Shown here: piece after piece, positions 190 to 28,800 of the stretch | Layout: each line of letters starts with the position of its first letter | How positions within the stretch are numbered: position 1 is the stretch's first letter | Origin: Euglena gracilis | Lineage: Eukaryota | Length of the DNA stretch: 64,000 nucleotides | Assembly: GCA_039621445.1 (NCBI GenBank) | Contig: CP154954.1 | Coordinates: 34,693,737-34,757,736 of the forward strand | Direction of reading: 5' to 3' | Translations under genes and position numbers: made by a program | Notes under the pieces: model-generated | Databases searched by the model: none | What the model was told of the DNA's origin: nothing | Seen by the model: the letters and a program-made list of their open reading frames with translations, nothing else

Positions 190-2546
190 GAACAATGCAT
201 CTGCAGAGAACGTTGGATGGGGGATGTTCATCTTTGGTATTTCAATCAACAAATATTGTGTGTGGTGTTTGGCCCACCGAGAAGTGAGTTTTTTTTGTTT
301 GGCCCGCCACGAGTTTTTTGTGAGGGATTCAATGTAATATTCGTTTAAATCCGGTTTTTTTTGGGCTTTTGTAGATCATTATGCGAAATGACTTCTAGGG
401 TCAAAAAAATATTTGGCGAATTCGGTGCAGTTGAAATGTTTCTTTGGCAATATGCCACAGGGTGGGGGTGTGACCCACCTTCACCAAAAGGGTCAACCCC
501 CCATTTTTCTCCCACCCTCCTCGTGGGGGGGGGGGGAGGAATAACCAACCACCCCAGCCCAAGCGGGGGTTAACAAGAGGTGTTTGGATTGTAAATGGGG
601 GGTTTAATCAGTGGCAGCAAAGCTATGCCTGATACAGAGGGGTGGAGCAGACTCAGAGACTGAAAATATCGGGGTGACTTCCCCATTGGGGTCCGGGCCA
701 CCTGGCTGGAACTTGGTCTGAAAGTTAAAATGGGGTCCAGTGCTCAAATTGCAACCAAACACACAATTGGCCACACCCACCATGGTGATGCAGTTCCCAT
801 ACAGCAGAAGCTCTGCCAGGGTGTTGTTGTGCCGCAGAGCGTAATGCCGGAGCAATGACAAAGATCTGTGTGGTTTCATGGAACCCCCAGAATAAGAACA
901 CCCAATAAAAAACCAAAAGAATCAAACCTCAAAATGTCAGCCCCCCCCCAAATAAGACCCCCTGGCGGGTAGAAATCATTGTGCAGTGTCAAATACACTG
1001 CACACTGACCTATGCACAGTGCAACTGAATCGCATCAACTGAATGTCAGGCCTCTGAGGGCTGGAAATTTCACCCCCCCCAAAAAATATCTAGCACCCGT
1101 CCACTCAAATGGAGAGGCAGCGGGAATGGAATGTGAAAGACAAAGAGGGTGAGGGCCGTTGGTGTCTCGTGCCCCGCATGTGACAGCGCCAAGGCCCCAT
1201 CGTCGGCGATGCGGTTCACGTTCAAATCAAATTCAGGGCCGCATGAACGCGGGCGATTCGGACTCGACAATGGACCTCAATCTGCCAGCGCCTGTCCGTC
1301 TCAACCAGGGGTTTTTGTTAAGACCGGTCAGGGTGGGGGGAGGGGGTCCCCCCACCCACTCACCCCCTGGCCCCCCCGGGGGGGGGGGGGGCGGGGGACG
1401 CACAAAAAAATGGCCGAAAATCGCGAAGTGCTAAAAAAGCACCTTTTCAAAAATTTTCGGCGCCTTCGAAAAGCATCCCACCCCCCTCCAGGAGGACCCC
1501 CAGGGGGTGGGTGGGTCCCCCCTGACCCACTCACCCTCCCCCCCCTCTGGGGGTCCACGACTGAAAAAAATCCTGGTCCCAACCCCACCTGTGGCTTCCT
1601 CGTCCATTGTTGGGCCACCTCTGTGTGCACAGGCTCTCGGCAAGCATCCCCCACAACCACTCAACTCCAAACCATCTCAGGGGTGGGGCGGAACATTCTC
1701 CCTTCCAAAAGTGCTTTCTTTTGGGCCACTCAATCAATCCCATGGGTATCAACTGAGCCCACATACTCCGTCCACTTAACTGCCCAACAAACTCCCATAA
1801 GCCACGTCACTCACCCACAGACCGCTATGAGGCACTGCCAAGCACCTGTGGTCATCCAGAATCCCAGGCACGCCCAGCCATTCCATAGGTACTGGGAATA
1901 CCACCCCAGCGCTGGGACCACCCCGAAGCATTGGACCACTTTCCGCTTGACCATTGAACACCAGGGACAGGGGGGCATTGAATGTACTGAAAATCTGACG
2001 GGCAAGCCCTGGGGGAGGGTCTGCAGGTATCGGTTGCTCTTCAGCATCTCCGCAATGTGCTTTGCCCCTTCGGGGCCAATGTTGTTGCCGCTCAGCCCCA
2101 GCGACGCCACCCGGGTGGGGAGAGGGCCCCGCCGGGATGCCCACCCGGGCTGCGGCGGTGCAGCGACAGGTGGGGGTGGCGTGCAAAGTGGAGTGCTGCG
2201 CAACGTGTGCGTTGTGTTATTATTCCAAATACATTTTTTTGCTTTGTTCAAAAAAAATTCTGTGGAGCGCCAGTCGTATTCACACACACAAACATACATT
2301 TGCACATATAAATATATTACATACATAAAACGTCCACACATGTATTGGATCACATGGCAACGCTGTCAAAAAGTGGACAGAGTTGGGGGAGGGTGAATGG
2401 AGGGCGGGGCCCTCGGCGTCATCCTGCAGCGCGGTGCACAAATGCTCCAGATCGGCGTCGGAGAGCTCGGCGTTGCTCAGGTCGACATGGTCGGTCCGGC
2501 CGTCGGCGATGTCGCGCAGGGCGTCCTCGATGGAGTGGCAGGCCAT
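190..2546 (-). CDS. RNI-like leucine-rich-repeat protein, 3'-partial; exons 2418-2546, 2015-2116, 1180-1228, 773-842, 383-396, about 190-211
   Basis: Manual splicing gives MACHSIEDALRDIADGRTDHVDLSNAELSDADLEHLCTA-LQDDTRVASLGLSGNNIGPEGAKHIAEM-LKSNRYLQTLDLNVNRIADDGALALSHA-LRHNNTLAELLLYGNCITMVGVEVISRS-LQMHCS, i.e. three consecutive 28-aa RNI-type LRR units in register. All five introns are non-GT-AG. The last two exons are less certain. Confidence 0.88.
843..1179 (-). other. Nonconventional intron 3 of the LRR gene
   Basis: TCAC|atg CGGGGCA...TGCTCCG gcatt|AC. 7-bp stem with one G-U pair; splicing restores SHALRHN. Confidence 0.75.
1229..2014 (-). other. Nonconventional intron 2 of the LRR gene
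   Basis: CTC|ccc CAGGGC...GCCCTG aattt|GAT. CAG at +4..+6 and CTG at -8..-6; splicing restores LQTL-DLNVN. Confidence 0.88.
1306..1575. mobile_element. hAT-like MITE nested in LRR intron 2
   Basis: Ends CAGGGGTTTTT / AAAAATCCTG; flanks GTCTCAAC / GTCCCAAC (7/8 TSD match); related to the copy at 23243-23493. Confidence 0.7.
2117..2417 (-). other. Nonconventional stem-ended intron 1 of the LRR gene
   Basis: Sense strand GAC|gcc GAGGGCCCCGCC...GGCGGGGCCCTC tcccc|ACC. Perfect 12-bp inverted repeat (2122-2133 / 2403-2414), 3-nt and 5-nt overhangs; splicing restores QDD-TRV. Confidence 0.85.
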
Positions 2547-2570
2547 CGCCACGCCTACATCCACCGTCGT

Positions 2571-2595
2571 CTGTGGGCGGCACCAAAGAAAACAG
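2571..2595 (-). promoter_or_regulatory. Candidate spliced-leader trans-splice acceptor of the LRR gene
   Basis: Pyrimidine-rich tract followed by CAG (TTTTCTTTGGTGCCGCCCACAG) about 25 nt upstream of the ATG. Inference from euglenozoan SL trans-splicing. Confidence 0.4.
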
Positions 2596-4283
2596 ACTGC
2601 AGCGGGGCGTATATCGCTCTCACACAGTGAGATGGGACTACAGGCGACTGAAAAAAAATACTGTCTTTTTCGACAAAAAAAAACACCCTGGAACGAAATT
2701 TTGTCAGTTTGTTTTTGTCGCTTTTACCCGAAATCTGTTTTGCTTCTGTCCAATTTTTTTGGCCAGAACGAGACGAATATGCATTTCTTTGTGGATTTTC
2801 TGTGTTTTTAGGCATTTTCGAGAGTCCCACCGCCAGGTGCCCCTGTGGTCTGAAACCATTTCCGTTGAAGAAGTTGAAGAATTGCTTGAGAAACACACAT
2901 CGCAAAACAAAAAAAAGTCAAAGTGGGGGAAAATTGGGGAAAGTGAGCAAAAAAACAACCTTTTAAACATTCTTTGAAAAACCGAAAATGAACCTTTAAA
3001 AAATCTTCAGAAATTGTGGCCTTAAAATACCATAAAATGCTCCCAAAAAACCTAAAAAAAATCATCATTCGAGCAACAATTTCTCCAACCGAGCAAAAAA
3101 ATGGATTTTCAAAACCTTGACAAAAGCAAGCAAACTCCAGGAAGAAAAGATTTTTGGCATCTTTTGGAACATTGCCTATCCCCCCAAAACTCAATAAAAG
3201 ATAGAGAGTTTTTTGCCAGTTTGCAAGGGTTCAAGAGCGATCTGGGCGTCAAACATGTCGAAAATCAAAAAGCTCGAAGAAACCGTCAAAACACCTTAAA
3301 ATGCTCCTTAAAATCTTTATCTTTGGGAAATCATCTTAAATCCTTACAACCTGAGGCCTGACTGGGGGTGGATGGGCAGGTCACCCCCCCCCAACCACCC
3401 ACCCCCCCCAAAAAATTCCTTCAACGTTGAAGGTGCTGACCTAAAAGGGGGGTGGTGGTGGAACCTCCCACCCACCACAGGGTCACCCCCCCTCCCACCA
3501 CCAATATGGTGTCCATGATTCCTGTGCACCGTAGCCACCACCACCCTCTTTTCTGACGATTGGAGGGTGAGGCCAACCGCAATTTTGTTGCAATAGAACC
3601 GGATCCAGCTCCATCCATTTGAAAAAAAAATCCTTAAAACCTTTCCTTAAAAAAAGGATGGAAGAGAAAGATGTTTGAGTAAAGAACAAATATATTTCCA
3701 GATAATCAAATGGTTTGATTCTCTGGTACCGGTCATTAATGCATATTGCCACATTTTTTCTTTCAGCCAACGCCCTGTGTTGACATTTCAAATACAACTT
3801 GGGAAAACAGGTTTTTGGAAGCTTTTGACATACTACCGGGGGGGGGGGGGGAATTGAAGCTAGACAAAATTAGACCCGACAAAATTGGAAGCCGAAAAAA
3901 TTGGTGCCAAACCTGAAAACTGCCCGGAAAAAATTGGCCGGTTTTGTTTGCAAGATGACTTGAAAAAAGGTGATTTGAAAATTTTGAGGCAGGATTTTCA
4001 AAAAAAGGTCCGGAAAAATTTGGCAGGATTTCTGTACGCCAATTTTTCCCAATCAATTTTTCGGCCTCCAATCCCCCCCCCCCCGGTACTTTGAAGAATT
4101 GTTTGAAATATTTGGCAGAGTGCTTGAAATAATTTACAGATTTTACGAAATGAGATGGTGTTTGGTCCAATTGCGTACAGGACTTGAGATGAGTGCTGAT
4201 ATGGCAAATTCACACCTCGTCTTTGGTCCAAAACATTCTAATCACAATTCAAAAGAAAATGAAGCACACACCCACCTCTTGGT

Positions 4284-4680
4284 CAGGGTTCGATATAAGG
4301 ACAGGTGGGGGGGGTGGTCCGGACCCCCCCCCTGCGGGCCAGGAGGGGGGGGGGTGGGGGGGACACCCCCCCCCCACCTAAACAGGTGCGCGGTCAGGGT
4401 GGCCGAAAATTTTTGACCCCCCAAAACGACCAAAAGTGCCATTTTGGGCACTTTTTGGGCAAAAATGTGCCAAAAATGCAAAAAATTTTCGGCGCGAAGC
4501 GCCGGAGGAAAAAATTGGCCCTTTTTGGGGGGGGGTCAATTTTTGCCCCCGAGGGTCGGTCCGGACCCCCCTTGCAGGTGGGGGGGGGTGGTCCGGACCC
4601 CCCCTGCGGGCCACGCGGGGGGGGGGGGGGGGGGACACCCCCCACCTAAACCATGTACGCTCTCCTTAAATCGAACCCTG
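4284..4680. mobile_element. hAT-like MITE (family A)
   Basis: TIR CAGGGTTCGATATAAGGA / TCCTTAAATCGAACCCTG; perfect 8-bp TSD CTCTTGGT (4276-4283, 4681-4688); internally duplicated G-rich GGTCCGGACCCCC blocks. Confidence 0.92.
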
Positions 4681-5262: not shown

Positions 5263-8200
5263 TCAGAGGACAGGATCTACATGTGAAGCAGGGGCTGTAG
5301 GGGGAGGAGACGCGCCGTCGGAGTCAACATCAAAATGCGGGTCAGTGTCTGAAGGGTCGACGTGGGGAGTCAAATCCACCCTGGGGTCCCCATCGTGTCC
5401 GGTGGTTCGTCGCAGTTCATCAATAATGCGGGCAGACTGTGTTGTTCTTTCTGACATTGAAAGACGGGCTTGGGAAGGCTTTCAAAAATCAGTCTTTAGA
5501 AAATATAATCGGTCCCCTCGAAGGGGGAAATAACTTCCAGGGCGGGTGGAAATCTAGTCCCACTTGGATTCTTCGGCGCTTTGTCCACTGGCACTTTGAG
5601 CTGTTGCTTCCACATGAATATACTGGGAGGAGCAGCAACATCCCCTCCCTGTGGAAAAGGAATGCTTCCCAGGGAGGAGAGACTGACCGCACGGTGCCAA
5701 GAGACAAGGGGGCTGTGGCAAATCTGTTCCTCTGGTCCAAGAAATTCAATGCGGGGGAAAACAACGGTCCGGGTGCGGCACCAGTTGGACTGCATGGTGC
5801 ACACCAGCGCCGCCGCCTCCAAATGGAGGGCAAGGTTGCCCACCGGCCTCGCACGGCCGCTTCTGAGGGGCCCTGGCACAGCGAACGCAATCAGGAGTGA
5901 TTGGTGGCAGGGGCCAGGCTTTTGCTCAAGGACCCGGGGGGGGGGTCCACTGGTCAGTCATTTTGCTAGACACGGGGAAAAACCACTAGCTAGACCCCCT
6001 CCTGGGGGGGTCCCCAACTGGAAATTTCTCCGGCGCAACACGCCGATGTGAAATGAGGGTTTCAAGTGTTTTTTTTTTTACCGATTTTGTTTCACAAAAA
6101 AACCCCATAATTGTCAAAATTGGCATTTTGGGGAGGGGGTCTAAAAAATCTGTGACCCCAGCACCGGTCACTGGAAAAGAATTTTCCTCAAGCTGGCCCT
6201 GCTAGCGGACCCACCCCAGGGGTCCACAAGGTTTTCCGCAGATCAATTTTGGACTAGCTGCAGTCGATCCCCCCACCAGAGGAGGTACTGCGAACCCTCA
6301 AGCAGAAGCCTGGGCAAGAAGGACAAGAAGACGCCTCCTTGGGTGGTCGCTAAATTGATGCACAAAAGCCCCCGGGGATAGTTTTCTTGGGACGTTGAAA
6401 CATAGAATGCTAAGCATTTTCTCAAATCCCAAACCACCTTTCAACATGGGACGACGCGCCTTCGGTCCCTTTGGGGACACATCCAGCGCCGAAGTGGACG
6501 CGCGGGCGACAGGCGGACGAGGGGCAAAGGCCCCCTCTCATCCATGGCGCGGTGGTGGTTCCAGTTGTGGCGCTCCTCGGCGGGGATGACGAACCGCCAC
6601 GCGGAGTAGGCGGGCAGTCGCGTCTCATTCACCACCTGTGGTCCAGGAAGGGGGAAAGGGCTCGCTGTCACGGCAGGGGGGGGGGCACTTCCACAGCGGG
6701 GATCCAGTTCCGCTGTAGAAGTCCACCTCCCCCCTGTAGCGAGTCCGCCCAAATTTCCAGCCCAGCCCCCCTTTCAAGAGATACATGGTCTTGAACTTGT
6801 TCATTGGGGTGGGTCCCCAGTGGGCTCCCTCCACTCTCATTCAGCAAACTGAATCGCCCAGGGCGAAGAGGTACTCAGACTGAGCCTCACAGCAGGAGCT
6901 GAAAATCATGATGAGTTTCACCTTTCGTCCCCCTCCCTGGGGCGGTGCCACCAGCCAAGCTGGCCAGCCCATTTTTTTGCTGGACACCTTTCTGCTTCCT
7001 TTGCCTCAGCACCAGGCTGGACTTTAAGCCAATCCGACCCCAGGGGGTGCCTGCTGTGGCACTCCAAGGTGCCCAGGTCTGACTTTTCAGGGGGTTGGGT
7101 AGGGATTGATATAAGGAGGGTGCACAGGTTAGAGGAGCCCCCCCCCCTCGACCAGAGGCCTCCCACCTGCCACCTGCCTGGGGGTGTGGACCAACCCAGG
7201 GGGGGGGGGTACCCAGGGCCACCTCAAAAAAAATGAAGATTTTCCTTCGGGCACTTTGCACCGAAACTGCTTTTGGCATTTTTGGAAGTTTTTTTTTAAC
7301 CCAAGAAGTGCCCAAAATGGCACTTCTTGCCAACTTCTTTGGGGGCGGGGGTCAAGTCTTCAGCACAAATTTCGGTCACCCGGACCGCGCCACTAGTACA
7401 GGAGGGGACTTCCCCACCCCCTGCCGGTCCGACCCACCCCCCACCTGCCCTTATATCGAAAGCTGGGGTTGGGTGTGTGGGTCCACTAAACCCCACCCCC
7501 CAGTGAGTGGCGTCGGGGCCAGGGCTGGACACGATTCCCTGACACCCCAGTGTACCCCCTCCTATCCTGTTGGGTGGGGGTCCAAAATTGGCCCCAAAAA
7601 GTGGGGGGTCAAATGGGATTTCCCCCAAACCCCCCAGGAGGGTTCCTCCTGGGTGGATGGGGGGCCCCTCAGTCAGAAGGAAAATTCCCTGGGGGGGGAA
7701 GACATGTGACCAAAAAAACTTGGGCCCTCGGTCAAGGCACTCATGCGCCGAAGGTGACGAAGGCCCGAACAGGGCCACACTTGACCCCATTTCGGGCCCA
7801 TGGCCAGGCAGGCACGATTCCCTCCCTCCAGGGGAGTGCCCGCCCAGGCACTCCAGGGCTCTTCAAGATCCCCTCGGTCAAATTTTTCCCATCCAGACAG
7901 CCTGCACGTAATTTGCCGTTTTGATCCTATTTCTTCTTTCTCAAACCCAAACATGAGACACCCCTGGTGGGGCCAATTCTCAGAAGCCATTACAAAAGAC
8001 TCCGGTTTCAAAATATTAGGGTGGGATTACTTCAAACGCTAAGTCTGCTGGGCAGGGCAGAGATGAGGTCCCGCCAGCCAAACTATGCCCCACCAGTTGC
8101 TGTGGCTGGGGGGGCCACAGCAGCCCCCCAGGGAACATTAAAGAACTAAACAGAAGCCAAAATCGGGAAATTGCACAAAAAAATTCTGCCGGTCTGCCGA

Positions 8201-8776
8201 TTTTCGACCTATTTTGCCAACTTTTTTTTTGGTCAAGAATCAGCCATCGTCCAGCTGCTCAAAGAGCAGCTGAATTAGAATTGAAGTGCAAGCCCCCCCT
8301 GTGGGCACTGTGACTGTTTTTTTTGGTGCCTTTTATCCCTTCTTCTGGCCTGGCGCTGTTGTTCGTCTCTGGCCCTTTTTGTCTGTGTACGTGGAGGTGG
8401 CTGAATGAAGTGCAAGCCCCCCCCCCCGGGGGGGCGTGAACTTCCTTAAAAAGAAGCTTGAACGCGACTTTGCCTTCATTTCCGAAACTTTGCTTTTCTG
8501 ATAAAACACCGCCAATTACCAATCCAGCTTCTCTCCCATCCACAGAGGGGCGCATGTGCAACATGCACACCTGGTCGTCCTCGGTCGTCAGGAAAATGGT
8601 GTGCAGCGCCGCATTGGCTCGCCGCAACTCTTCGGCACTACGCATATACGCCTCGAACGGGAGGAACCCCATCTCCGTCTTGCGGCACTGCTCCCGGTGG
8701 TAGCACGCCACCTTGCCGGCGGGCTGCTGTATGTATGGCGACTGCGCGCGCGTGTGTGTGTGTATGTGTGGGTGTT

Positions 8777-8836
<60 letters not shown>

Positions 8837-11800
8837 GGGCGACTGTGGGGGTGGGGGGGTAGGCGGGCAGGTTTGAGAAATGCTGGCTGTCAATGAGAGG
8901 CTGGCATCCCAACCAGAAAGGGAGAGAATTGAAACTACTTTGTGGGGGCAGCTGGATCTGACGTTGGCCAACTTGCCCAGGATAACAACTACCCCATTAA
9001 AATCACAGGCATTCTGCCAGAAACAGGTTGCCCAAACCTGCCTTCCAATATTGGATTATTCCCTGTCAAAAAAAACACCAGAAGGAGGGGGTGCAGGTTT
9101 GCATTCTCCGGGAGGACCCTTCGCAGAAAGGGCTTCACCTGGAGTGCCAAACAGCAGAGGTGGAGCCAGGGCCCGGCTGTCACTGCGACGGACGTGCATG
9201 CCTATCACGCCGGCGGCGGGGAGGCGGCCACCAAGGACCACTTCCTGCGAGAGGGGCCAGCAGATGCACCGCCAGAAGAAAGCAAAGGCGGGCTGCAAAA
9301 AAAAACAGAAACAATGACACGGGCGCAGGCGCTGTTTCGGGTTATATTAATGCACTGCATCCGACAGCTCTGCCGGTGTGCATGGCTCGAAGCAAGCAAC
9401 AGGCTCAGCACAATGCGGTAAGGGGCAATTCAGCAGCAGACAGACAGACAGACAGACAGGCAGGCAGGCAGGTAGACAGGCAGACAGGCAGGCAGGCAGG
9501 CAGACAGACAGACAGATAGATAGCAGTCCAGGTCATCTGCAGTATCTCTTGTTGGCATCTCTCCCTGGACAAAACCTTAAATAGCAGACCTTATCTGCAA
9601 CTCTGAGAAATCAGCAATCTCAACTGAGTGGTGTGAGGAAGGGAGGAGTAAGAACCCGGAAAATTGGTTTGAGTTGTAATTTTTCAGCACTGGTTTTTGA
9701 TGGTGGTGGCATTTGGCGGGTATTTTTGAGAACTGGCAAAAAACGCAACAACAGAACACAAAGCAAAGCCATTTCACCTGTTTGTACTTCTCAATGTCAG
9801 CACCAAACCATGGCTGCAGCCCCCGCCAGAAATATCTCGCACACTGCGCGTACCACCACCCCAGGGGGTGGGCAGACCATCGTGTGGGTATGGGAAGGGG
9901 CCGCCCGTTTAAATGGAATCAAAGGTGCAGAGAACTGACGCAATGTGCAAATATGCGTTTGATTTTGGGAGAAGCCTTCCGGTGTGAAACAAATCACCAG
10001 GGGGGAATTGCAACAGCCTCAACATAAGCAGTGCAAAAACACAAAAGAATGCAAATTGCATGTAAATTTCAATTTCTTTAGGACGTCTTCTGAACGTTTT
10101 TGAAAACGTTCAACTCTTCCAGGATGGTTGGTTGTTTATATTTTGCGTCATAATTTCCTGTGCAAATACGGTTCATATTTTGAACAATCATTCGCATTTT
10201 TTTGAGATCAGAAAACATAAAGATGATCAGAACAGTGCTTTGCACAAATTCTCAAAGAAAAATCCAAAAAAGGTCAAAAAATTACACAAGAGAAAAAAGA
10301 GGCGCAGACTTTTGCATTGACAGGGTCAATTGCCTATAACGCACACTTCCATTCCATGATACAATAATCTTTCGTTGCATACGTGTATGTTTTGTATGGG
10401 GATTCTTGCAGAAGAACAATTGCCTTATAAAAAAAAATTCAAAAAAGTCAAAAAAAGGGCATACAAAATTCCAAAAAGTAAACTTTCCCATATTCTCAAA
10501 GATGCGAATTTTGTGAAAATGCAAATTTTCAATATTTTGGACAATTCCAAAATTGCAAATAATGCAACAATTTGCTCCTCCCACCCCCACCCACCTGTTG
10601 GGCCATGCCAAAAAAACCATACTGGAAAAAGCAGCAAGGTCATATTTTTTGTTCATCATTCCATCATCCGCACATGATGCAACTTTGCTTTTCAACTGGC
10701 AGTGCACCTACCAATAGCCTACTAATACCCAATGCTGTTCTTCTGGTAGGTTCAAATTGAGAAGATGCCAGAAGAACTCTAAGCACCAAATGAATAATCA
10801 CACAGCTCACTTTTTGGTGAACAAATTGCAAAATGCAAAAAAAGATGAACACTCAGTGTGCTCACTGACAAAGCCAAAAAGGGAGACCAGTTGGGCTCAG
10901 ATACAATGGCAAATTCCGCACCTTATGCGCCTGGCACAATCTCCACCAGAGACGGATGGCACGACTTTGCTGTGTGTCGTTTTCAACACATTTTTTGTCA
11001 AGAGGGAATTCAGTAGGGGGATCCAAATTTTGTAGGTGGTAGCTGACCCCAGGCTCATAGCTCACCCAGCCTGTGGGGTATGGTGATGGCGGCAAATGTC
11101 CCCAAACGTTCTCAGACACACTCAAACGTACTCAGACGTACTCAAGCGTATTCAAACATACTCAAACACACTCAAAAGTGCTCAAACGTAGCCAAAGGTA
11201 AACAAACGTTCTGGCATACCCCTGCCCCACACAGCAGCCAGCTCTGCCATAGCGCGCCACAGAAAATTGAAAATTGGGCCTGGGAGGGCAAAATTTTGCA
11301 ATTCCTGGCCACTCCTATATGCCAAGCCAAACCAAGTCCAGGCAAAAGGGGCTGGGTTGGGGTAATCTGGGACACCACGTTGGAAATACACAATGGCAAC
11401 CCCTGTCAACACAGGCAAAATGGGCAGTGAGCCAAAACGGTGACCCAAAATTGCCAAAGACGTTCACTTTGTTCAAGTCACTGCCCTCTTGGCCTGCTGG
11501 TGCCTGGGCTGGGTGTGGCTTAGTATACAGGAGGGCCAAGAATCACCAATTTTGGCCTTCCCAAGCCCGGTTTCAATTTTCCAGAGCGCGCTGCAACAGA
11601 TCTGGCTGGGGCACTGCTGCGCGGGTCCATCACACCATCGCACACCCCACAGGTTGGGGTGATGTCCCGAGGTGGCAACTCAGAGCATTCCTTGCTGGCA
11701 AGGCCAGCGTCGCTCCTCTAGCCTTATCCGTGCCTGATCGGTGGCCTCGGGTGGTTGGGCAGCAGACCCTGCTGAGAGGGTCACTGGGCACAGGGCTGGG

Positions 11801-14800
11801 CAGACCAGCTTGCCGTCGTGCCAATGGCTACAGCTGGTGGACTGGAATACCACGAACGTCTCAGCAGACAAGGGTCACATGCCAAAGATCAGGTTGCTTT
11901 CACTCATGTCTCAAAAAAAAATCCGCCGTGCATTCCCCTGGGATTAAAGGCAGTTCATCAAATTTGATTTGCTTCACTGCGTCTCTGAAATGCATCACTG
12001 GCAAACCCATATTGATTGGGACCGCAGGTCTTCTGAACCAAGAGTGTTTTGGCCCCACCAGGCTGAAATTGACCAACCCCGGGGGAGGGGCTCTCAAAGT
12101 GCCCCGGAGTGCCTGGGCACTGGGGGGGGGGGTCGGTGCCTGCCTGATTGTGGGCCAAAAAATTGCCCAAAATGGCCTTTTCTGGGCTTCCGGCGCCTTT
12201 GGCGCTGGAAATGTGTCGGAGTGCCAGGCACCTTTGGCCATATGCCCTACCTCCCGGGGGGGGATCTAGGTGCCTTGGAGTGCCTGCCCAGGCAGGCAAC
12301 CCCCACGGTGGGGTCGACACCGCCTTAAAATTCACCGCAAACAAACTTTCAACGGCACCACAGATGTCAAAATCATTTTTTTTCGCCCTTGGAATATGTG
12401 GAGTACGACTATACCCATTCCCTAAGGACCACAAAACCCCAAAGCTAAATTGAAGCATCCTGTGGCCAAACGTCATGAAAATTGTCGTTTCTGACAAAAT
12501 TGTACAACAGAGTGTTGTTGAATCTCCATTCCACGAGGACTCCCTCCCCTAAAAATCCCACGAGGCTGCTCTTTGAAACAGTCCATTTTAAAATTCACCA
12601 AGAGTTGCAAAACGGTCTGCTACAGCAGAACAGTGGTCCCCTTTGTTATTGCCCCCCACAGTGATGTCCGACTTCCTTTCGAGATCTTGGGCAATGCAAA
12701 GCTGGATCAATTCTCAAGACTGACTGGTTGGCGACCTTTCCTTTGCACTCTGGTTTGGGGACGCCTTGGGAAAACAACAAGTGTGCGCGGGGAGTGAAAA
12801 TCGGAGAGGTAAACTATGACCCTTTCTGTGCCCTGCATAGACGGAGCTATTAAAAAGAAAGATTCCTCCGTTGGTTCCATTGGTCCTGGAGCTGGCAAAG
12901 CCCTGGTGGTGTGCGTGCGTGGTGCAGGTCCCGGCAAAGCGGAAGCAACTGCAGTTTGTCACCGGGAGAAAATACCGCTCCCATGTGTGGGGGGTCTGGC
13001 CTTCCGCATAGCGCTGAAGAGCAGACAGAGAAGATACAGAAGAGGCAAATAATTTCTAACCTACTGAACTTAGCACCTCTGAAAGAGTTAAGATGACACG
13101 CAAATATTGAACCATGAAGGTCAACATCGGGGAAGATTGCTGACTGAACCTCTAACCAGAACGGGTGCCTTCTGCTGTGGGGTGCCTGACTATAACGTGT
13201 ACCGACTGTGACATCCTTTCAAAGACAGAGTGGATTTTTGGGCTTGGTTGGGTTCGAACCAGGCAGAGCTCCTTTAAAAATGGCCATTTTTGCCTGCTGC
13301 ACCAAACTGAGTGCTATCGCATTACTCACCTCAAACTATGGGGGTTCGTTCGAAAATGCCTCCCTCCCCTTCCTGCCAATAGAACCACAAAAATTGGTTC
13401 TCAAAACAACCTGTTTCGAAACATGCATGGTGATTGTCGAACGTTTTTTGACATGACGACTGTTTCAAAAAAAAGGATCCAAGGCTTCAATTGTTTCAGG
13501 CTATATTCCCCCCCCCAAAACACTAGATGGGCAGTTAAACACCCCAAATAACAGCCTCCCAAATAACGCCCCCTCCCCCCCCAAATAACACAACCCCCTC
13601 GGGAGCCGATTTCGAACGCCCAAATGACCCCTCCCCGTGTTTTCCTTTGGTTTTCTATGTAAAAATAACCCCCCAAATAACCCCCCCCCCCCCCCGGGGC
13701 CCCAGCTCGAGCGCCAAAATAACACACCAGGGGGGGGGGGAGGGGGGTCCGGGGGTCCCCCGAACTTGAAAGAATTTTCCTCCGGCGCTGCGCGCCGAGG
13801 TGGTAATGAAGTTTTTAATAGGGTTTTGGCTGATTTTGTTCCAAAAATTCCCAAAAATGGCCAAAAACGGGCATTTTTAGCCATTTTGGGGGGTCCAAAA
13901 TTTTTTTGGTCACTGGAAAAAAATCCACTAGCTAGCCCTGCTAGCAGACCCCCCCCAGGGGGGGTCTGCTAGAAATCCCACTAGCCAAATTTGGACTAGC
14001 TGCAGTCCAGCCCCTCCCCCCCCCCGGGGGGGGGTACTGCAATCCCTTAAGCAAAAGCCTGGTCAGCATGCAGTCAGTAAAAAAAAAAACTCAATAATAA
14101 GAAATGAAGAGAGGGGCACCAAATCCGTGGTCGGCACAAACCCTTCCGATGCACACCCATTCCGAATGGCTGAGCTGCAAAATGAGGCCCTCCTGCATGG
14201 CCATCCCCAACGCCCAAGAGATCAGGTGCACCTCGGCCCCGAGGCCCTGGTTCAGCAGTCAGCGAAATTCCCATGCCGAGAACTGACCCGCATTGCCCCC
14301 CCCTCCCCCGGAAGAATTCTTCTCCTGACCAACACATCAGCAAGAGGGTGTGATGTTGAAAAATGCAATACAGTTAGCATTGCTCACCTGGTAGGGGGAG
14401 AAGAAAAAAACGACGACTGATGAACACACTGGACTGCATAGCACAGAAATCATTGGAACACAAAAAACCTCTGCCGGCGACAATTGCATATGCGAGGGTT
14501 CTGGTGAAGGAATATGGATGCCTGAGCCTCCACTGTGCCAGGTAACGTTTGCCCAGTTCTGGTCAACCATGGCGCAAGACCTGAGATGATGTGGCACATG
14601 TAAACCCCACCCCAAGCAACCCGGCGGGGCGCCAAATCACTGGAGCCATCTTTTCACCTTCCCCTTCTTTCAGTGCTGTAAGACTTTTGCCTGAAAGAGG
14701 GGTGCCAGGTTACTGGAACCATTTTTTTTTTGGCTTGCCCCCCCGCCAAATTATTTGGGCACTGCCAGGCATGCAGGAAGACACACACAAAAGCCACCAG

Positions 14801-17403: not shown

Positions 17404-17513
17404 ATTCAAATTCCTTTTTCATATGATGCCAATTTTTTTTCCAGACTTTCTTCACAAAAAATCCTGCCAAATATCATATTTTCAGCTTTGAGGCTGCCAA
17501 AATGGGGTGAGAA

Positions 17514-18517: not shown

Positions 18518-20145
18518 GGTGAGAATGGGCTGACCATTTTTCCGATACCTTTTCCAACCGATTCCCAAGCCCTTGGGGGGGGGGGTTCCATTTTCCCAGA
18601 CCTGACACCAGACCCAGTTCCCCCAAGACCAGCCCACGGAGGCCAGTGGGCATCAGTGTTCCAGCCAGCCCTCAATCCCCAAGCGAAACTGCATTCTGGT
18701 GTGTTAGAGGTGTGTCGCCACCCTCCCTTCTCTTTGAACCCAAGCCCACCTCACCACTCCGACGTCCCAGACACAAGTTTTGTGCGGCTTCCTTGCAAGA
18801 ACACACAAACGCTGGAAGATGACATTCAGTTTTGTTGTTGAGGGTGGATGTGGGCCATAAGAGCCCCTGCCAGGCTCTCACAGGGCACCTCAGGCATGGG
18901 TGTCCCGCCAAAGGCAAAGACAGAAACTGACGCGGCGGGTGGACTCCTCCATGAGTGCGAAGCCCAACAGCGGTGACAGATTGGAGTGAGCCGGTGGACG
19001 GCACTTTTATTAAAATCTTCCTACTTACTTAAAAAAAAAAAACATGACTCCTTACTCCTACTTCTTTTACTTCTCTTCTCCTATTAAAACAAAAACTCCT
19101 TCTCCCTTAGACATCGGTGTTCTGGGTACAAAAAAATTGGTATTGTTGATTAGATTTTCCAGAACAACATATCATTACAGTGAGGTATATCGGCAGAAAT
19201 TGTGCTGGGGTGGGAAGGAAGGGAAATAAAGCACATTGGAGGGAAAACAATGAGAATAGAAAATACCTCCCCCTCCCCTTGTCGTGGACACGCCAATGTT
19301 CCAGGAAAGTGGGGGGGGGTGTCAACGACGTGCTGTGTCAACAGAACGGCACCATAAAAAAAACAGACCGCACCAGCAACAATTGCTATACATATAGCAC
19401 CAGCATACAATTGCCACTGCTATACCTTTGGACCTGTCTCATATTGCACCAAATCACCAAATTCACAGGGGATAGCATTTGAAGCCATGGGTGCGAAGAA
19501 GATCCGACACATTTTGAAGTGTCTTGGCTGATTTCCTTAGAAACTGTGGCCAACGCGAAGGAGAAAACAATGTTCCAGAAAAGTGCTGTTGGGTGTCAAC
19601 GACACACTGTGTCAACGACAAGGGGGGGGATGTAGGAATGCTTCGAATTTTTGCACTCCATTTTTCAACAAAAAAAATGATTATATTGGATGGGGAGTGA
19701 ACGAGGATGGCTAAAAATGGTTTTCTGGACGGTGTTGCAAGGTTCCCTGATTTTGAACATTATCATATTCTATGATGACCAAAATGACGCTTGGTTTGGT
19801 TTGGTTCATCCAAATTCATGTCAAAAGGAGTAAATACCAAACGCAAGTGGCGACTGCTCTGAAATCTCGAATCAAAAATGAAACCCGGGACAAAACAGCT
19901 GGATGGCTGTGAGCATTTCACCTATGGCTTGAAGAAAAAATTTAGCTGAAAAGGTTTCAAAAATAAGTGAAAATCATTACCCACATTTTTTCCCTTAATA
20001 CCTTTAAATTACCATAAAACGAAAAAGCCGCTTATGCATCTGCATTTGGTAGACAAAATAATGGCTCACTGGAATCAATGCAGAAATGGAGCGTGGGTTG
20101 TGATGAATGTGTCCAGGAGGGCATGGTCAGAAGGACAGCAAAGGG

Positions 20146-22789
20146 TTACTTCTTCTTCTTTGGCAGCGAACTGACCTTATCCTCCCTCGCCACAGCGGCC
20201 CAATACCAGCCCTCCTGTTCCTGTTTCAGCCGCTCCATCTTGGCTTCCGCATCCTGGATGGCTGCAGCACTGCTGAGAAAACCTTCAGAACCGTCCCCTC
20301 TAAAAAAAAATGAAAACATCACTTTGTTGCTATTGTGCAAAAAAAAAACGACAGCAAGAGCACGCTTCGAAAGAGATATGGAAAGAATCTCTAACCATGA
20401 AAAAAGAATAACAAAAAGGCGAGAGACAAGCATATTCAAGACTCATCCCCCTAAACTGTTCTGTTGTCCAGTCAAGGAGGTTGGCCCCATAAGATCCGCC
20501 AGGCTTCAAAAGCTGCCGGATATGCTCTGGAGAACCGAGCAGCGACCGCAGCAGCGCTGGGCGGCGTTGAGGGGGGTCAGCTGCTCCCGCATGCGCTCAA
20601 TCTTTTCTTTCAGTTCGACAATCTCCTGCGGAGCAAGACGGGCTATCGACGAAGATATTGTGGCAGGACGCCAGGGTGGGGGGACCCACAACAGCTCACT
20701 GGAACAACAATGACAGATGGGTGTTGGATCAGGTCATTCGCAGGCACGCCAATGGAACAGGAAAGACGGTCCGGTCTGCGCCGCCCCCCCCCCCCATCCC
20801 GGGCGGGCGACCGCCAATCCCCACCTTTTCGTTCTTCTTCTTGTACGTGATCGGGGTCGCCCCCCTCAGCTTCTCCAGCTGGGCGGCGAGCGCCTCCCGC
20901 TGGGCCTCCAACTTGGTCGTCTTCTTACCCTCCGCCTCCGCATCCTTGATGGCCTTCTCTGCCTTCTTCAGCTGCGGAGGGGAAAGGCGAGGCTGGCCCC
21001 GGCGACAGGCGGGGGGGGGGGGGGCTCGGCGGCTTTGGGAGGTCGCCGCGCAGCCGGGCCGCGGGTGGAGGGGAGTGGGATGGGGAGAGCGCTGCCAAAC
21101 CACCACCCCGCGTGTGTCCTTCCGGGGATCAGGGGGAGGGCTATTTGGGGTTGGGCCGGGACGGTTTTCCGACGGGGGGGAGTTGTCGGCTTGGGGGTCG
21201 CGGAGTTGGCATCACAAAGAGAAATGCACATTTCTGCCACCTCCCCATTTGCCCTCCCACATTGGGCCAACCACCAAACTCTGGATCCTGCAACCCACTG
21301 AGGCAACCTCCATTCTTCACTAAGAGAATGTTGGGAATGTTGAAAAGCTTCAATCAGCCGCTTTTGATGGATGAAAAAGCAGACTTCCTCGGCCCCTTGC
21401 ATCCAACTCTTTGATGACACCAGGGGCAAGAGATTTTGGCTGGTCGCTGGGGGAGGAGCAGCAGCGGGGGTACAGGTGCCCCACGATGCAGCTGGGCCAA
21501 AGTTGGGGCTGACTGCAACACCCCCCCCCCCCGTGGTGGGGCTGAAAAGGATCTTTCATGAAAAAGGAAAGTCAAGGGGTGTGGTCGAAATCCAGTGCAC
21601 GCAGGTTTGCGCAATTGAAAGAGACCTTTTCCGTCAGCTCCGTCAAGAGGAGGGCCGCCTCGGCCTTGCTCACCTTCCCCGAATCCAGAAGCACTGCGGC
21701 AAAAACAGTTTGCAATGCTGCAACGCAGCAAACACACCACAAAACAAAGATTTTCTGAAGGAACCAGAGGGGACAGCCGGCCAACTGAAGAAGGTGCAGG
21801 ACCAAAAAAAAGGGTGATGGCAGCCAGGGTTGTGTAAGCTGGGGAGTCCACTAGAGCATTTGGGCTGGCTGGACGAGACGCGCATCCCCTCCCGGGGCCG
21901 GGCCACCGATCAATCCTGCCAGCCTGACCGCCGGGCGAATTCGAAAACCGGCCCGTCCGGAGTCACCCGAACAGGTCGGGAGGGCCAAACCCCTTGTGGG
22001 GGCGGCCCGTTCGGCGGCCTTTATCTTTTTCCCCCTGCCTGTCTTCCGCCTTTGGGAATCGCGCCGGTCGAGGCCCCGGGAGGGGATGCGCGTCGCACGT
22101 GCAGGCGAACCCCCGGCGGACCGGTCCTCACCCTAACCCTACCCGTGCCCAACCCGGTGGGAAGTTTAATACCCCCCTGGGGTATTAAGCTTCCCACCTG
22201 CCATATATATGTATATATACATACATACATACATATATGTATATATACATGCATACATACATACATGCATGCATGCATGCATGCATGCATGCATGCATGC
22301 ATGCATGTATGTATGTATGTGAGTGTGTGTGTGTATGTATGTATGTATGTATGTATGTAGGTATGTATGTATGTATGTATGTATGTATGTATGTATGTAT
22401 GTATGTATGTATGTATGTATGTATGTATGTATGTATGTATGTATGTATGTATGTATGTATGTATGTATGTATGTATGTATGTATGTATGTATGTATGTAT
22501 GCATGTATGTTTGTTTGTATGTATGTATGTATGTATGTATGCATGTATGTATGTATGTATGTATGTATGTATGCATGAATGTATGTATATATATGTGTGT
22601 GTGTATATGTGTATATATATGCATATATATACATATATATATATGTTTATATACATGTATATGTATGTATATATACATATATACACACACATATATATGT
22701 ATACATACATACATACATACATACATACATACATACATACATACATACATACATACATACATACATACATACATACATACATACATACA

Positions 22790-22820
<31 letters not shown>

Positions 22821-25800
22821 GCATATATAGGGGGTACGGGGGCAAAATGTAAAAAAAAGTTTTTTTTGTGGGGTTGGGGGTGGGGTCAGAAACCCTCCCA
22901 ACACGTTCTTTTCCGTTGTTTCCTTTTCTTGCGGGGGGGGGGGTGAAAAATCAAAATAAAATTCCTCCTCTTCTGGGCATTAATGTGGGGGCAGTGGGGA
23001 GGGTTGTGAGGGGTCAACCCGTAAAATATTTTATCCTGTTTTTTTTCATACGTGCCTGCACACAAAATTGGTTGCCTCTGTGGAGCCTCTGGTAAACAAA
23101 AGTCAGGATTTCACATTTGCTCGGAGCTGGGGGGGGGGTAGCATTTTGGTCCTGTTGCCACCGAGGAGGGAGATGAGACACACATTGGCAGAGGCAAAGA
23201 AAAAAAGAAGAAAACGTTGTAGCAAGGGACAAGATCATGACGCAGAGGTTTTTTTTAAGACTGGGGGGAGGGGGCCTGGGGGGGTCAGGGGGGCCCCGGG
23301 GGACCCACCAACATTTCCCCGAAAATGGCCAAAAATCGCAAAGAAAAAAGTGCCAAAGAAAGCACCTTTTTCAAAAATTTTCGGCGCCTTTGGCGCCAAA
23401 AAGTACATTCCCCCGGGGGGGGGGGGGGCTCGGCCGCACCCACCTACCCTACGCCCCCTCCCCCGGGGTCCAAGACAAAAAAAAAAGCCCTTGTTATGAT
23501 GAGAATATGGCTGCACAGCCTGGCCACTCTGTGGGCAGGACTGCAATGACGCACCTTGCACTTGCTTGGTCAGGTCGTCCACCTTCTCAGCCTTCCCCAG
23601 AGCAGACTGACGACTGCCCCCCCCCCCACTTCAGCCTGCCCTGCCCATGGCCACCTGCCCCTCATACAGCTCCTGTTCCTCGGCCGTCAACGGCTACCCC
23701 CCGGCTCCTTTGCGGCCAGGCACAGTTGGGAACAGGGGTTATCTGAAGGACCCGGGGGGGGGGGTCCTGTGGGCCGGCTGGAAAAGGGTGCTGGCTGGAA
23801 AAAAAAGTGTTGACCGGACCCCCTCCACTGGGGGTGAGGGTCCATGGGGTGGGGTGGGGGTTCCGGCCGGCTGGGAGCCGGACCCAGCGCGTACGCAAAG
23901 AAAGAAAGCCCGAATGCAGCCAGGTTGGCATTGTTCAGTCAAAATTTGGAGACCCAAAAAAAGGACACCAAAAACGCCTTTTTTTGGCGAATTTGGAAAT
24001 TTTGGGCGCTTTGGGCTTTTGGAAATTTTGGAAATTTGGGCTACGCTGGGCGGGCTTACCTGAACTTTGTTTCAGCGGAACCGGGGGGGGGGGTCTGCAT
24101 CCAAGCTGGGAGGTGCTGGCTGGAAAAAAGGTGCTGGTTGGCTGGTCCCCCCCAGGGGGTAGGGTCCCCTCCACCTGAAGAAAACCGGTTGGGAACGCGG
24201 TGGGTGGAGGTTGGGCGGGGTCCCCCAGGCCAACCTTGGGCCATCCTACCTCCCCCCCCCCCGACGACAGGGAATGGCCCCGGCCCCGTCAGTGGGGCCA
24301 CCCCTCGCAAAGCAGCCGGGCTGCAGGGCGGCCATGCGCTGCTCGAACTCTTCGAAGCGGCCCTGGACGCCCTTCATCGCCTTCAGCAGGCAGCGCTTCT
24401 GAGGACGACCCGGGGGGGGGGGGGAGGCGGCCCAAAGGGTTCGGTCGGGGCCGTCCGTCAACCCCCAGTGGTGGGGGTTCGCCCCGCCAAGGTGCATATC
24501 CCGGCGGGGTTTTAGGGGGATAACTGCTGGGGTTGTTTCCGACTGGTGACTGACTGAGAGTGGTGGGTAATCTCAATTCAGGTGTTCTTCCTTGAGACAA
24601 AACCAATTGAGATCAAATGTACGTTTGCATACATAAATAATATAAAAAATATTATTGTAATAAAATTACAATAACAATAACAATATATGATAAAAACACA
24701 TAATTTTGAATAGCAATAATAATATTTTTAATATATAATAAAGACCGAAGGAATGAGAGAAAAAAACCAAAATTTTGGGCGAGGCAGCCGAATTTTGAGC
24801 CCATCCTTGCCCAAATGTTCGCACGTCCCCCCCCCCCCCAATTGACCGATTGGTTTCCAGTTTTGGGGTCAAATCATGGTTTCCCATGGGGCCATGTAAG
24901 GGGAACAGGTTGTACTGCCATTTGGGGCCCTCTTCCACCCCTCCAAAACTGTCGATATCTGGATTGTTTTTTGACATCCGCATGTTTTTCACACCCGTAG
25001 GCACTAATCCGGCCGGCACATCAAAATAGCTATCCCTCCACCAAGCCAAAAAAAAATCTGCTACCAGCCAGTCGTCCTTCAGCGACCGGATCCAAAGGAA
25101 AGTCAGTGAGGACAAATGAAGGGTTAAAAAATACCCCCCCAATTGCACCCCCCCCCCCAATTGTCCCTGGGCCCCACCAACGGAAGGTTGTTTGCCTTGG
25201 CCGTGCCCTGACTTTTCCCTTGGTGCCCCATGACTGTCCCCCCCCCTTGATTGTGTGTTTGGGGGGACCGGGAAGCAGGTCGACCGAACAAGAACTGTGA
25301 TCTTCCTCCTGTGATGGCAATTGGCCGTTGATGTGAGGGGAAAAAACTGGCACTGGAATTCGTAAAACTTGTTAATGTGTGTGAAACCCAGAATAATTGT
25401 GTGTAGTGCAAGGATCCATACCACATAACTTCGACTGAGATTAAGCGGCAATCCCACAGACGAAATGCACAATAGAAGTGGTCACGCAATAGACCTGCGT
25501 GAAGGTGGGGCACTTCTGCTTCACAAGGTCCTTGAAGGTTTCCATTTCGCACAGCGTGCACTTGATCTCGGGGGGCATGTCATCCACTCGATACCCTGCA
25601 ACAGAAACATCAAAAAAAAATTCCACAAGGGTTTGTTGGGTAATTTTCAACCTGCGTTGTGCCCCAGGGGCGACGGCCCCCACTGAAAAAGTGGCCTGGC
25701 CGACTTATGTCCCCACCCCCCTTACCACCCCAAAATTCAATTTGGTTCATTTAAATCCATTATGAACATTTTCCAGTGCAAAAGCCTTGGAGGGCGTGGG

Positions 25801-28800
25801 TCCGTGCAGACCAGGAGGTGGACGCCCTGCACCCATCTGAAATCAAATGAGATGTATCAAATGAGCAAAAAAATAAACAGTTGGAAAAGCTGCCAGCTCA
25901 AATTTTGGGTTAAAAAAAAACATTTTTTTGCTTCATTCACAGGTAGTTTTGAGGCATTTTTCAGCTTTGGTTCTTTGGCATCCCGTTTGACCTCCGGCTG
26001 GGCCCAGTCCCAGGGGGCCAGGTTCCCCTGCGGGAAGCTGCTGGGAATACATTCCAAATGCAATTCTCAAACCAATGCAATAAGTATTTTCGGAGTTTTG
26101 GAGAAAGGTGCACCAACTCGGATGATGAGCACAAACATTGACTTTTAAATCCTTTGCGAAATGGGTTTCAAAAACAAAGAATCACATACACCTTGCGCAT
26201 CACTGCACACCAGCGATCCTCATAGTGCCGTCAGATTCTTCTTGAATTTTGACGAAGGGGAACACGTGGATGTATTTCAAATCCTTTCCTGTGTCATGCT
26301 GATACTTGAACTTGCCCTGCATGTGTGAGGAAATGGGATGCATCAGACGCAGGTTCTGTTTGGATGGACAAATAGCTCAAATCGGAAAATAAACTCTGAA
26401 ATTATTCCCGTACCATAATTGATTGGCCTTTCACAACTCAAGGGGTTCATCTGGGATGCATGTGGTCGGGACAAATCAACTGAAAGAAACGCGGCAGCCT
26501 CATACTAAGTATGACGGGGGGGGCCTGGTACCGGGACCCGTCACCCAAACCATGGCGCACCGGTCCCTGGGTTTCAGTGGTCCTGGAAACCCACCCCATT
26601 TCACTGGTTTTCAGTTGGTTTTCCGGATACCGATTCGGAAGAATGGTGTTGAAGACAAGGATTGGGGTCAGGGTTATGGATTTAGGCCCCGACTCTATTC
26701 ATTGTCCCAAACCCTAATCCTTTTTCATGGGGTATCCGGAACTCGCATCCGCACAAATAAAACTACCAAAATATCCCAACGAAATCCCCCAGGGAGGCGG
26801 GATTGAGTGGAACTAAGGGTGTTGAGTTTGGTGAATTCGGGATGGACCAAAAAAGTCGGAAGGAAATTTTTTTGGAAAAGGGGGGTTAAAAATTGCTAAA
26901 ACGGCCATTTTGGAGGAGCTTTTTTGGGGGGTTTTCACCTTCAAAATTTGGCTACAAACCAACCGAGCTGGATTTGGAAGTTTTTTTGCCTGTTATTGGG
27001 TGAAAGCCAGGTCCAGCCAAAAGCCGGCAGGACCCCTCCCCTGGACACCTCTGGGGGGTCCAGCCAGCTCTTTTATTGCCCAGCCAGCACCTTTTTTCCA
27101 GCTGGCTGGCTGACCCCCCCCCCCCGCCCCCCCCCCCCCCGCTGGAGGCCTTTAAAAAAAAACCCTGAATCCGGCAAGAAAATGCTGGAAATTTTTTCTT
27201 TCTTATTATTATTTTCATTATTCAAACTATTTTACTCATTTTCTTCACGTTTACATTTGTGGTCGTTCGTTCTTGGATCCCAGATTGGCCACCCCCCCCC
27301 CCGGGAATAGAAACTGACTGGTTTTCAAAAAAAAGTGTCTGAGTGGTTTTTGGAAGAGAGGTAATGACCCCCCCCCCCCGAGGGTCGGTTAAAAAAAATT
27401 GTGTGGCCAGGGCAGAGACCAGAGTTTGGTGTTGTCTGGGTTTCTGTCAAACTGCGAGGAACAGAAACCTCAAATGATCTGTGGACAAAGACGGGGTAAA
27501 TACAGATGCAGATGCACACAAGGCCCAGGATCTTTCTTCAAGTGTTTCATACTGGTGGGCCCCCCGGGGCCCCACTAGTATGACAGGGGTGTGTCATTCA
27601 ACCCCCACGTCATACAAGTGGGCCGACCCCATGATTTTGGCCGTTTTCTCCACCACCTTCGATGGTCCATGGCCTGGCCGGGAGCTGCTGGCTGGAAAAA
27701 CGTTGGCTGGAGGGTCGGGTGGGGCCCGGCTCAAGTAATTCCCTTTGGCCTTATTTTTACTGACCCCCCGGGTGGGGGGGGGAGGGGTCAGAAAACAGTT
27801 GGTCACTCAGAAAAACCAATTCGCCCATCCCGGGGGCGGCTAGTCGGCAAGTGGCTTGGTGATAGCACTCCACCCCGCCCAAAATGAACCCCACAATTTT
27901 GTATTTGGGGGGACTTTCAAGGCCCTCAGGGCGGTTGGGAAAATTAGGCCTTTTTCAACCAAAAGTGCATGTGTGTGTCTCCCAATGCCATTTAGAACTC
28001 AAATTCCACCTTTTTAAGCAAAATTCAACCTGGGCACCATTTTTGGGCCTGATCATTGTCGAGGACGGTTACAAAAAGGGACTGCCCCATCTTGCGCTGC
28101 TGCCGAGGCACTTGTCAGCGCTTCCCAGAGGGGGGGGGGTTACTTGGGCAGCTTGGGGGGCCACCAATGCACCCCCCCCCAAAAAAGGCGGCCCAAAAAA
28201 CACTGGATTTACTGAAGGAAGCTATTATCACAAAATTTCGAAGAAATGTTCCTGTGCTCCCCCCCTGGGTAAACCCTCAACCAAATATAAGAACCCCCTG
28301 GTTCTATATTCGGGCAGGTTTTCAAGAATATCAGATCGTTCCACGTTCAACAATGCACCATTTTCCACTGACCTGAGAGTCCAGTGAGACGGCCGCTCCC
28401 TTGTCCTCCTCATACCCGACAGCCCGCAGCGCGTCGGAGAGAAACTTTGGGAGGTCGGGTGCATGCTCCTTTCCTTTGGGGTGCATGACAAATCCAGGGT
28501 AAAGACAGACGCAAACCACTGGAATGGCTCGCTGTGAATACACTTCGTACACAACAGCGACATGTAAATGTTTCCTCCCATGGAGTACAGCAAAATGGTG
28601 AGATGGAAGCATGGCATGGGCTGTACTTCTGTCGGACCTTCTTTCCGCCACCAACAACGAAGGTGACCCTGAGAAAGAAGAGAATTGCAAAAGGCACAAG
28701 AGGCTTTGGCTCAAAAAGAAAATCGCTCCTTAAGGCAGTCGTAAATGAACAAGATGCCGATGGTTCTTGAAGAGAAATGCCACCCTCCAGGCTTCAGGTC

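Follow-up and report, generated by a model that had tools for sequence, protein, structure and literature searches.

Border bases of nonconventional introns in three neighbouring Euglena gracilis genes and the terminal helix that sets their register

Do introns that escape the GT-AG rule carry a signal of their own at the cut sites, and is such a signal read by whatever removes them? The question is raised by a stretch of 64,000 nucleotides (nt) of Euglena gracilis DNA (contig CP154954.1; the whole of it is called the window), in which an earlier note, made from the letters alone, had described the junctions of 12 nonconventional introns between positions 843 and 28616 as C|R...Y|R, where R is a purine, Y a pyrimidine and the bars mark the borders. 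We find that this border pattern is real when the register of each intron is fixed by its terminal helix, and we consider it highly probable that these are the nonconventional introns of E. gracilis nuclear genes, with a border bias that is the published consensus of the class.

The window is nuclear DNA of E. gracilis, and one exon translation from each of two genes retrieved, at 100% identity, the EukProt proteins EG_transcript_17168 (P0001, 344 amino acids, without Pfam family) and EG_transcript_14032 (P0002, 418 amino acids, Pfam FUT8_N_cat match with E = 5.9e-19), which places the introns in euglenid nuclear genes; the EG_transcript naming is that used by the E. gracilis transcriptome paper (PMC6366073). 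Three genes, all on the minus strand, occupy 843-28616: the P0001 gene, the fucosyltransferase-like P0002 gene and a third, called the LRR gene here, one exon of which gives a sub-threshold Pfam match to LRR_6. The introns were rebuilt independently from RNA joints and exact protein-to-genome matches, the earlier 12-site list not being passed on, and for protein-defined introns every donor/acceptor pair that reproduces the protein was enumerated. P0001 matched the translated minus strand in 12 exact blocks that run from 30900 to 20149, and P0002 in 18 blocks, corresponding to 15 exons, from 15884 down to 5392. The RNA evidence comprised Logan contigs (X1, X2, two of 19 small-share runs taken as RNA by guess) and raw RNA reads (X21, X22) mapped on 843-20842, for which 15 of 156 joints were listed, none of them in the weakly expressed fucosyltransferase-like gene. 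Among the joints listed, 1228>2015, 2116>2418, 18969>20080 and 20259>20563 were present in all four runs, and loose ends of contigs revealed two more introns, at 1176 (continuing in a match to window 809-838) and 20627 (matching 20827 onward). Together this gives 28 introns inside 843-28616, of which the LRR gene contributes three, the P0002 gene 14 and the P0001 gene 11. A GT-AG register, accompanied by a pyrimidine tract, exists for eleven. The other 17 are nonconventional: no register that agrees with the mature mRNA or protein gives them GT/GC-AG borders, in line with the earlier note's preference for something other than spliceosomal recognition.

Since sliding is possible in 13 of the 17 nonconventional introns, each with two to six equivalent registers, the register was set by helix geometry alone, blind to the border bases: among the permitted registers, that one was taken in which a helix of at least 4 base pairs (bp; G-U allowed) starts at intron position +4. 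This fixed-offset helix count replaced an unconstrained duplex folding of 48-nt flanks, which extended into the exons and left the helix end undefined. Exactly one helix-compatible register was found in 14 of the 17 introns, with positions +4..+6 paired to -8..-6, a helix of 4-13 bp, a 5' spacer of 3 nt and a 3' spacer of 5 nt in 13 introns and 6 nt in one (M1; intron names as in Table 1). The cuts therefore lie at fixed distances from a helix, as had been suggested. In the non-GT-AG introns, the pairing energy of cognate ends is -18.7 kcal/mol, compared with -11.0 kcal/mol for non-cognate ends; the corresponding values for the GT-AG introns are -6.9 and -6.5 kcal/mol.

In the helix-fixed register, 11 of the 14 introns follow an exon whose final base is C (A in two, T in one, G in none, and thus a pyrimidine in 12), which is far from the expectation given an exon C content of 0.293 (P = 1.9e-4). 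The first intron base is a purine in 11/14 (G 6, A 5, C 2, T 1; P = 0.049 against exon composition), the last a pyrimidine in 11/14 (C 7, T 4, A 2, G 1; P = 0.016 against exon composition), and the downstream exon begins with a purine without exception (G 8, A 6; P = 1.5e-4 against exon composition and 3.8e-4 against the first-codon-position purine content of 0.57). The Y|R bias is present at both junctions, with all four features occurring jointly in 8/14. When both borders were moved by -4 to +4 nt, the four features coincided in 0-3 of the 14 at every shift other than zero. Because the pattern is lost on shifting, the border observation holds and is specific to the register.

Some of the particulars that had accompanied the pattern need correction. 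The span reported for it is itself made of intron borders, 28616 being the 5' end of B2 and 843 the 3' end of L_a in its helix-predicted register, so that the earlier reader evidently used the same geometry. A set of 12 introns (L_a at 843..1179, L_b, L_c, M1, M5, M7, M11, M13, M14, B2, B6 and B11) reproduces the counts of C in 11/12 upstream exons and a pyrimidine at 12/12 intron ends, although the downstream purine is then found in 12/12 and not in 11/12; two of the stems that had been named, GGC and CGA, are absent from this set, and the two sets are therefore not identical. The 12/12 leaves out three helix-registered introns whose final base is a purine, M3 (G), M8 (A) and B7 (A), and is hence a selected count, the unselected one being 11/14, or 12/15 with L_a. 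Neither do the stems vary freely, as had been stated: the triplet at +4..+6 is CAG in seven introns and CGG in two, so that nine of the 14 (9/17 overall) carry the known CDG motif with its complementary CH'G, and the other five triplets occur once each. The interpretation offered earlier is thus partly supported.

The spacers are mostly unpaired, only 8 of their 42 potential pairs being able to form, and no exon-exon helix was detected; the substrate is therefore the end of a helix from which two single strands of 3 and 5-6 nt protrude. A double-stranded cut site of the RNase III kind was rejected on the spacer pairs, and a bulge-helix-bulge substrate on the exon-exon pairing (cognate -4.2 versus non-cognate -5.0 kcal/mol, P = 0.89); over 8-15 nt this pairing was likewise no better than with non-cognate partners (P = 0.72-0.93). 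Excision most likely proceeds as follows. The intron ends pair, mostly CAG with CTG, in a helix that begins at +4 and at its other strand pairs with position -6 from the 3' end. A machinery, probably not the spliceosome, would then measure from the end of this helix and cut on the 5' strand 3 nt upstream of it and on the 3' strand 5-6 nt downstream of it. These cuts would fall in Y|R context; among the border bases, a requirement is known only for the purine with which the downstream exon begins. A helix-measuring endonuclease with a ligase is what we infer from this, a proposal already in print. The excised introns are reportedly circles, as others cite from Guminska 2021. The fixed geometry and the base bias were observed in this window; the requirements placed on motif, spacer lengths and acceptor purine come, like the circles, from the literature, which also describes removal after the conventional introns (PMC12501133, PMC11282704, PMC12621601). 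Among the RNA joints listed for this window, none links the two ends of one of these introns back to each other.

Several points weigh against assigning all of these introns to the published class and geometry. Five of the 14 stems (GAG, GAT, CGC, CAT and CCG) lie outside CDG-CH'G, and three of the 17 introns (L_a, M9 and B12) depart from the geometry in every register that RNA or protein allows; in B12 the 3/5 spacing accommodates only 3 bp, and its spacers of 3 and 9 nt are outside the published code. The register of 12 of the 17 introns comes from protein-level evidence plus helix geometry and not from RNA joints, and for M1, M3, M8 and B2 some of the permitted registers would yield other mRNAs.

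Among competing explanations, the one that survives best, albeit an unlikely one, holds that the symmetric Y|R is the echo of an 8-bp target-site duplication (TSD) of a MITE-like element (MITEs being miniature transposable elements with inverted repeats), in which case the consensus would record tolerated or targeted insertion sites and not what the machinery reads. Five exon and three intron bases upstream would then equal five intron and three exon bases downstream, and the earlier note had held that the pattern would predict which TSDs, those with a pyrimidine at N5 and a purine at N6, give tolerated insertions. The spacers do add to 3 + 5 = 8, the recently gained gapC intron carries an 8-nt direct repeat (Milanowski 2016, PMC4770533), a MITE origin has been proposed in print, and the donor-side base is dispensable for splicing (PMC12501133), yet is C in 11/14 here. 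However, the TSD prediction finds no support here: the two 8-mers at the junctions match at 44 of 112 positions, compared with 39.1 +/- 4.3 for permuted partners (P = 0.16), five matches out of eight are reached by M14 only, and the two copies of N5, the base before each cut, agree in 6/14 introns where about 6.1 are expected from the base counts.

We regard as very unlikely the explanation that the pattern is an artefact, produced when one of several equivalent registers is picked and conventional introns read 2 nt off are mixed in. The short direct repeats at most junctions would let the borders slide to C|R...Y|R, and MAG|GT...YAG|G slid by 2 nt reads M|AG...Y|AG. There is material for such an error in the 13 slidable introns, in the 84.4% of slidable introns reported by Nomura 2025 (PMC12501133), in the omission of the three purine-ending introns from the earlier 12/12, and in 4 of 12 GT-AG introns (B3, B5, M10 and M12) that read C|A..C|A at the -2 register, a trap in which a hand reader could have counted them as fitting. 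Set against this, a register chosen by the helix alone brings the four features together only at shift zero, the non-slidable introns L_b and M5 show three and four of the four features, respectively, and the published logos are themselves built from non-slidable introns (Nomura 2025, PMC12501133; Milanowski). The shift control largely refutes the artefact. Lastly, that the upstream C reflects codon composition only, most introns being phase 0 (9/14) and Euglena third positions rich in C and G (35% C, 43% G), can scarcely be credited, as 11/14 C remains improbable even with p = 0.35 (P = 1.1e-3) and G exceeds C at third positions, yet stands at none of the 14 exon ends.

Two peculiarities remain once the border bias is read as the published consensus. 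The first is the donor-side C itself. As a cleavage signal it is not supported: when Nomura et al. mutated the final base of the upstream exon, splicing persisted in every variant (PMC12501133), so the C is not a splicing requirement. The second is L_a. At 843..1179 this intron is a perfect case, with a 3-nt spacer, a 7-bp CGG.../...CCG helix, a 5-nt spacer and then a purine, whereas the RNA contigs fit only 839..1175 to 841..1177, leaving the canonical position 2-4 nt outside those registers and 843 itself 2 nt from the nearest of them. The mRNA predicted from the canonical register differs from the contigs by one base, in a synonymous His codon. Either window position 841 is different in the strain from which the RNA came, or the cuts of L_a lie 2-4 nt off the ruler; if that strain does equal the window DNA at 841, the cut would contradict a strict 3-nt donor spacer. 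It is conceivable, though we hold it rather doubtful, that the bias at the last exon base (11 C, 1 T and 0 G of 14) is the footprint of intron gain, through a target-site or repair preference for C|R, with L_a, possibly cut off the ruler, as a second oddity.

The coordinates of all introns are collected in Table 1. The window offers a clean, annotated example of genes with introns of both sorts, 11 conventional and 17 nonconventional. The two kinds alternate within single genes, seven conventional and five nonconventional in the P0001 gene (20626-28372, minus strand) and five and nine in the P0002 gene (6636-15630, minus strand), and the pyrimidine tract is C-rich in several of the conventional ones, a feature already described for E. 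gracilis.

Table 1. Introns of the three genes between 843 and 28616. Borders are written in the direction of transcription as exon|spacer-stem...stem-spacer|exon; runs are named as in the text.
Intron	Positions	Strand	Gene	Borders	Evidence and remarks
L_a	839..1179	-	LRR	 	Nonconventional, 337 nt; RNA-compatible registers 839..1175 to 841..1177; contig loose end 1176 in X1, X2
L_a, helix-predicted register	843..1179	-	LRR	C|ATG-CGG...CCG-GCATT|A	Canonical geometry only in this register
L_b	1229..2014	-	LRR	C|CCC-CAG...CTG-AATTT|G	Not slidable; joint in 4/4 runs; 7-bp helix from +4, 5-nt 3' spacer
L_c	2117..2417	-	LRR	C|GCC-GAG...CTC-TCCCC|A	Joint in 4/4 runs; 12-bp helix
M14	5428..5774	-	P0002	C|ACC-CGG...CTG-CCCGC|A	Six equivalent registers; protein and helix
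M13	5845..6507	-	P0002	C|GCC-CGC...GCG-AGGCC|G	Protein and helix
M12	6636-8570	-	P0002	GT-AG	Conventional; pyrimidine tract
M11	8715..9178	-	P0002	C|AGC-CGG...CCG-CCGGC|A	Protein and helix
M10	9245-9777	-	P0002	GT-AG	Conventional; pyrimidine tract
M9	9891..10895	-	P0002	 	1000 nt; no GT-AG register, no 3/5-6 helix; best fit 4 bp with 7-nt 3' spacer
M8	10942..11739	-	P0002	C|GAT-CAG...CTG-GTGGA|G	Intron ends in A; protein and helix
M7	11786..12908	-	P0002	C|CAC-CAG...CTG-TGCCC|A	Protein and helix
M6	13014-14156	-	P0002	GT-AG	Conventional; pyrimidine tract
M5	14261..14454	-	P0002	C|AAT-GAT...ATT-TCGCT|G	Not slidable; 12-bp helix, of which 5 bp are G-U
M4	14581-15212	-	P0002	GT-AG	Conventional; pyrimidine tract
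M3	15274..15415	-	P0002	A|AAC-CAG...CTG-CCCAG|G	Intron ends in G; register 1 nt upstream fits the protein equally
M2	15529-15630	-	P0002	GT-AG	Conventional; pyrimidine tract
M1	15683..15845	-	P0002	C|GAG-CAG...CTG-CCCGCT|G	6-nt 3' spacer; protein and helix
B12	18970..20079	-	P0001, 3' untranslated region	 	No GT-AG register; GATT/AATC helix, spacers 3 and 9 nt; joint in 4/4 runs
B11	20260..20562	-	P0001	C|GCC-CAG...CTG-CAGCC|A	Four equivalent registers; joint in 4/4 runs; 11-bp helix
B10	20626-20824	-	P0001	GT-AG	Conventional; pyrimidine tract; also by contig loose end 20627
B9	20972-21625	-	P0001	GT-AG	Conventional; pyrimidine tract
B8	21694-23554	-	P0001	GT-AG	Conventional; pyrimidine tract
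B7	23593..23646	-	P0001	T|GGG-CAG...CTG-GGGAA|G	Only 54 nt; 13-bp helix; intron ends in A
B6	23696..24322	-	P0001	C|AGC-CCG...CGG-GGGGT|A	Protein and helix
B5	24399-25494	-	P0001	GT-AG	Conventional; pyrimidine tract
B4	25596-26210	-	P0001	GT-AG	Conventional; pyrimidine tract
B3	26317-28372	-	P0001	GT-AG	Conventional; pyrimidine tract
B2	28457..28616	-	P0001	A|TGC-CAT...ATG-CACCC|G	Three other registers fit the protein equally

Two individual introns deserve mention. B12 lies wholly in the 3' untranslated region of the P0001 gene, whose stop codon is at 20149, and has the support of raw reads (64 and 73) as well as of contigs from two runs; molecule ends cluster at 18812, probably the poly(A) site. 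In B7, the terminal helix occupies about half of the intron. The fucosyltransferase-like gene (5392-15884, minus strand) differs from P0002 at three residues (amino acids 43, 243 and 277), and the RNA contigs depart from the window at many single bases, from which it follows that the window and the public RNA data represent different alleles or strains. A Pfam search of eight raw open reading frames returned nothing but a sub-threshold LRR_6 match, and a crude codon-usage scan of 29-64 kb for further genes gave nothing usable except exon 1 of the P0001 gene.

The sequence around these short exons contains runs of G/C homopolymer and palindromic repeats. Palindromic repeats flanked by such homopolymers lie at about 1320-1560, 4300-4640, 13680-14040 and 16340-16850, in introns and between genes. 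Contig depth over them is very high, up to 5286 in the bin 4178-4844, and many reads jump between the copies (joints 1397>4615, 4634>1378 and 4634>16843), so that they look like a dispersed MITE-like family. Long microsatellites are also found within introns, at 8738-8843, 9431-9529 and 22200-22830, consisting of (GT)n, (CAGA/CAGG)n and some 600 bp of (ATGT/ATAC)n.

As a discovery, the border bias carries little weight, since it is already known. The Y|R...Y|R rule was stated by Milanowski 2014 (PMC3935182) and Milanowski 2016 (PMC4770533), the latter with counts of 49/55, 49/55, 51/55 and 55/55, and Gao 2024 gave CCAGG at +3..+7 and CCTG at -9..-6 (PMC11170887). Nomura 2025 defined by mutagenesis the code 5'-N3CDG-/-CH'GN5-6|R, present in 61.2% of nonconventional introns, with a strict donor spacer, a needed acceptor purine and no requirement at the last donor-exon base, and suggested a MITE origin (PMC12501133). 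A 2025 diplonemid paper in RNA proposed, for noncanonical euglenozoan introns, RNase III with a ligase or a route resembling tRNA splicing, independent of the spliceosome (PMC12621601). The structure-specific endonuclease/ligase that the earlier note had favoured agrees with these proposals and with the code of Nomura et al., and adds nothing new to them. The note is thus a correct rediscovery, the rule, the helix-measured cuts, the acceptor purine, the circles and the MITE/TSD and endonuclease/ligase ideas all being published, and its value is that of a check, in that a reader without tools recovered the correct rule. What remains is small, namely the specific preference for C on the donor side and the disagreement over one base in L_a.

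Compared with known systems, the introns described here share with introners and MITE-derived introns (PMC11282704) the terminal inverted repeats and the TSD-like direct repeats at the borders, but differ in that no significant duplication signal was found here and in that introners elsewhere are removed by the spliceosome. With the tRNA-splicing endonuclease plus ligase, or RNase III plus ligase (PMC12621601), they share recognition of structure over sequence and, according to the literature, a circular excised intron. Unlike in the tRNA-type bulge-helix-bulge, however, no exon-exon helix stands beside the cut sites, and unlike in RNase III substrates the cut sites lie in unpaired spacers and not inside double-stranded RNA. 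The code of Nomura 2025 (PMC12501133) is shared in large part: the donor spacer of 3 nt and acceptor spacer of 5-6 nt recur in 14/17 introns, and CAG-CTG, CGG-CCG or CGG-CTG stems in 9/14. The differences are the five introns with GAG-CTC, GAT-ATT, CGC-GCG, CAT-ATG and CCG-CGG stems, two introns with other spacings, and the dominance of C in our sample at the donor exon end, where that code has no base requirement. Closest of all is the euglenid junction model (PMC3935182, PMC4770533), in which +4..+6 pairs with -8..-6, most commonly as CAG/CTG, a purine starts both the intron and the downstream exon, and short direct repeats lie at the junctions. All of this is seen here, and apart from the last exon base, which is specifically C in this sample (11 C versus 1 T) where the published text says "pyrimidine" and the published logos may already be more specific, nothing essential differs.

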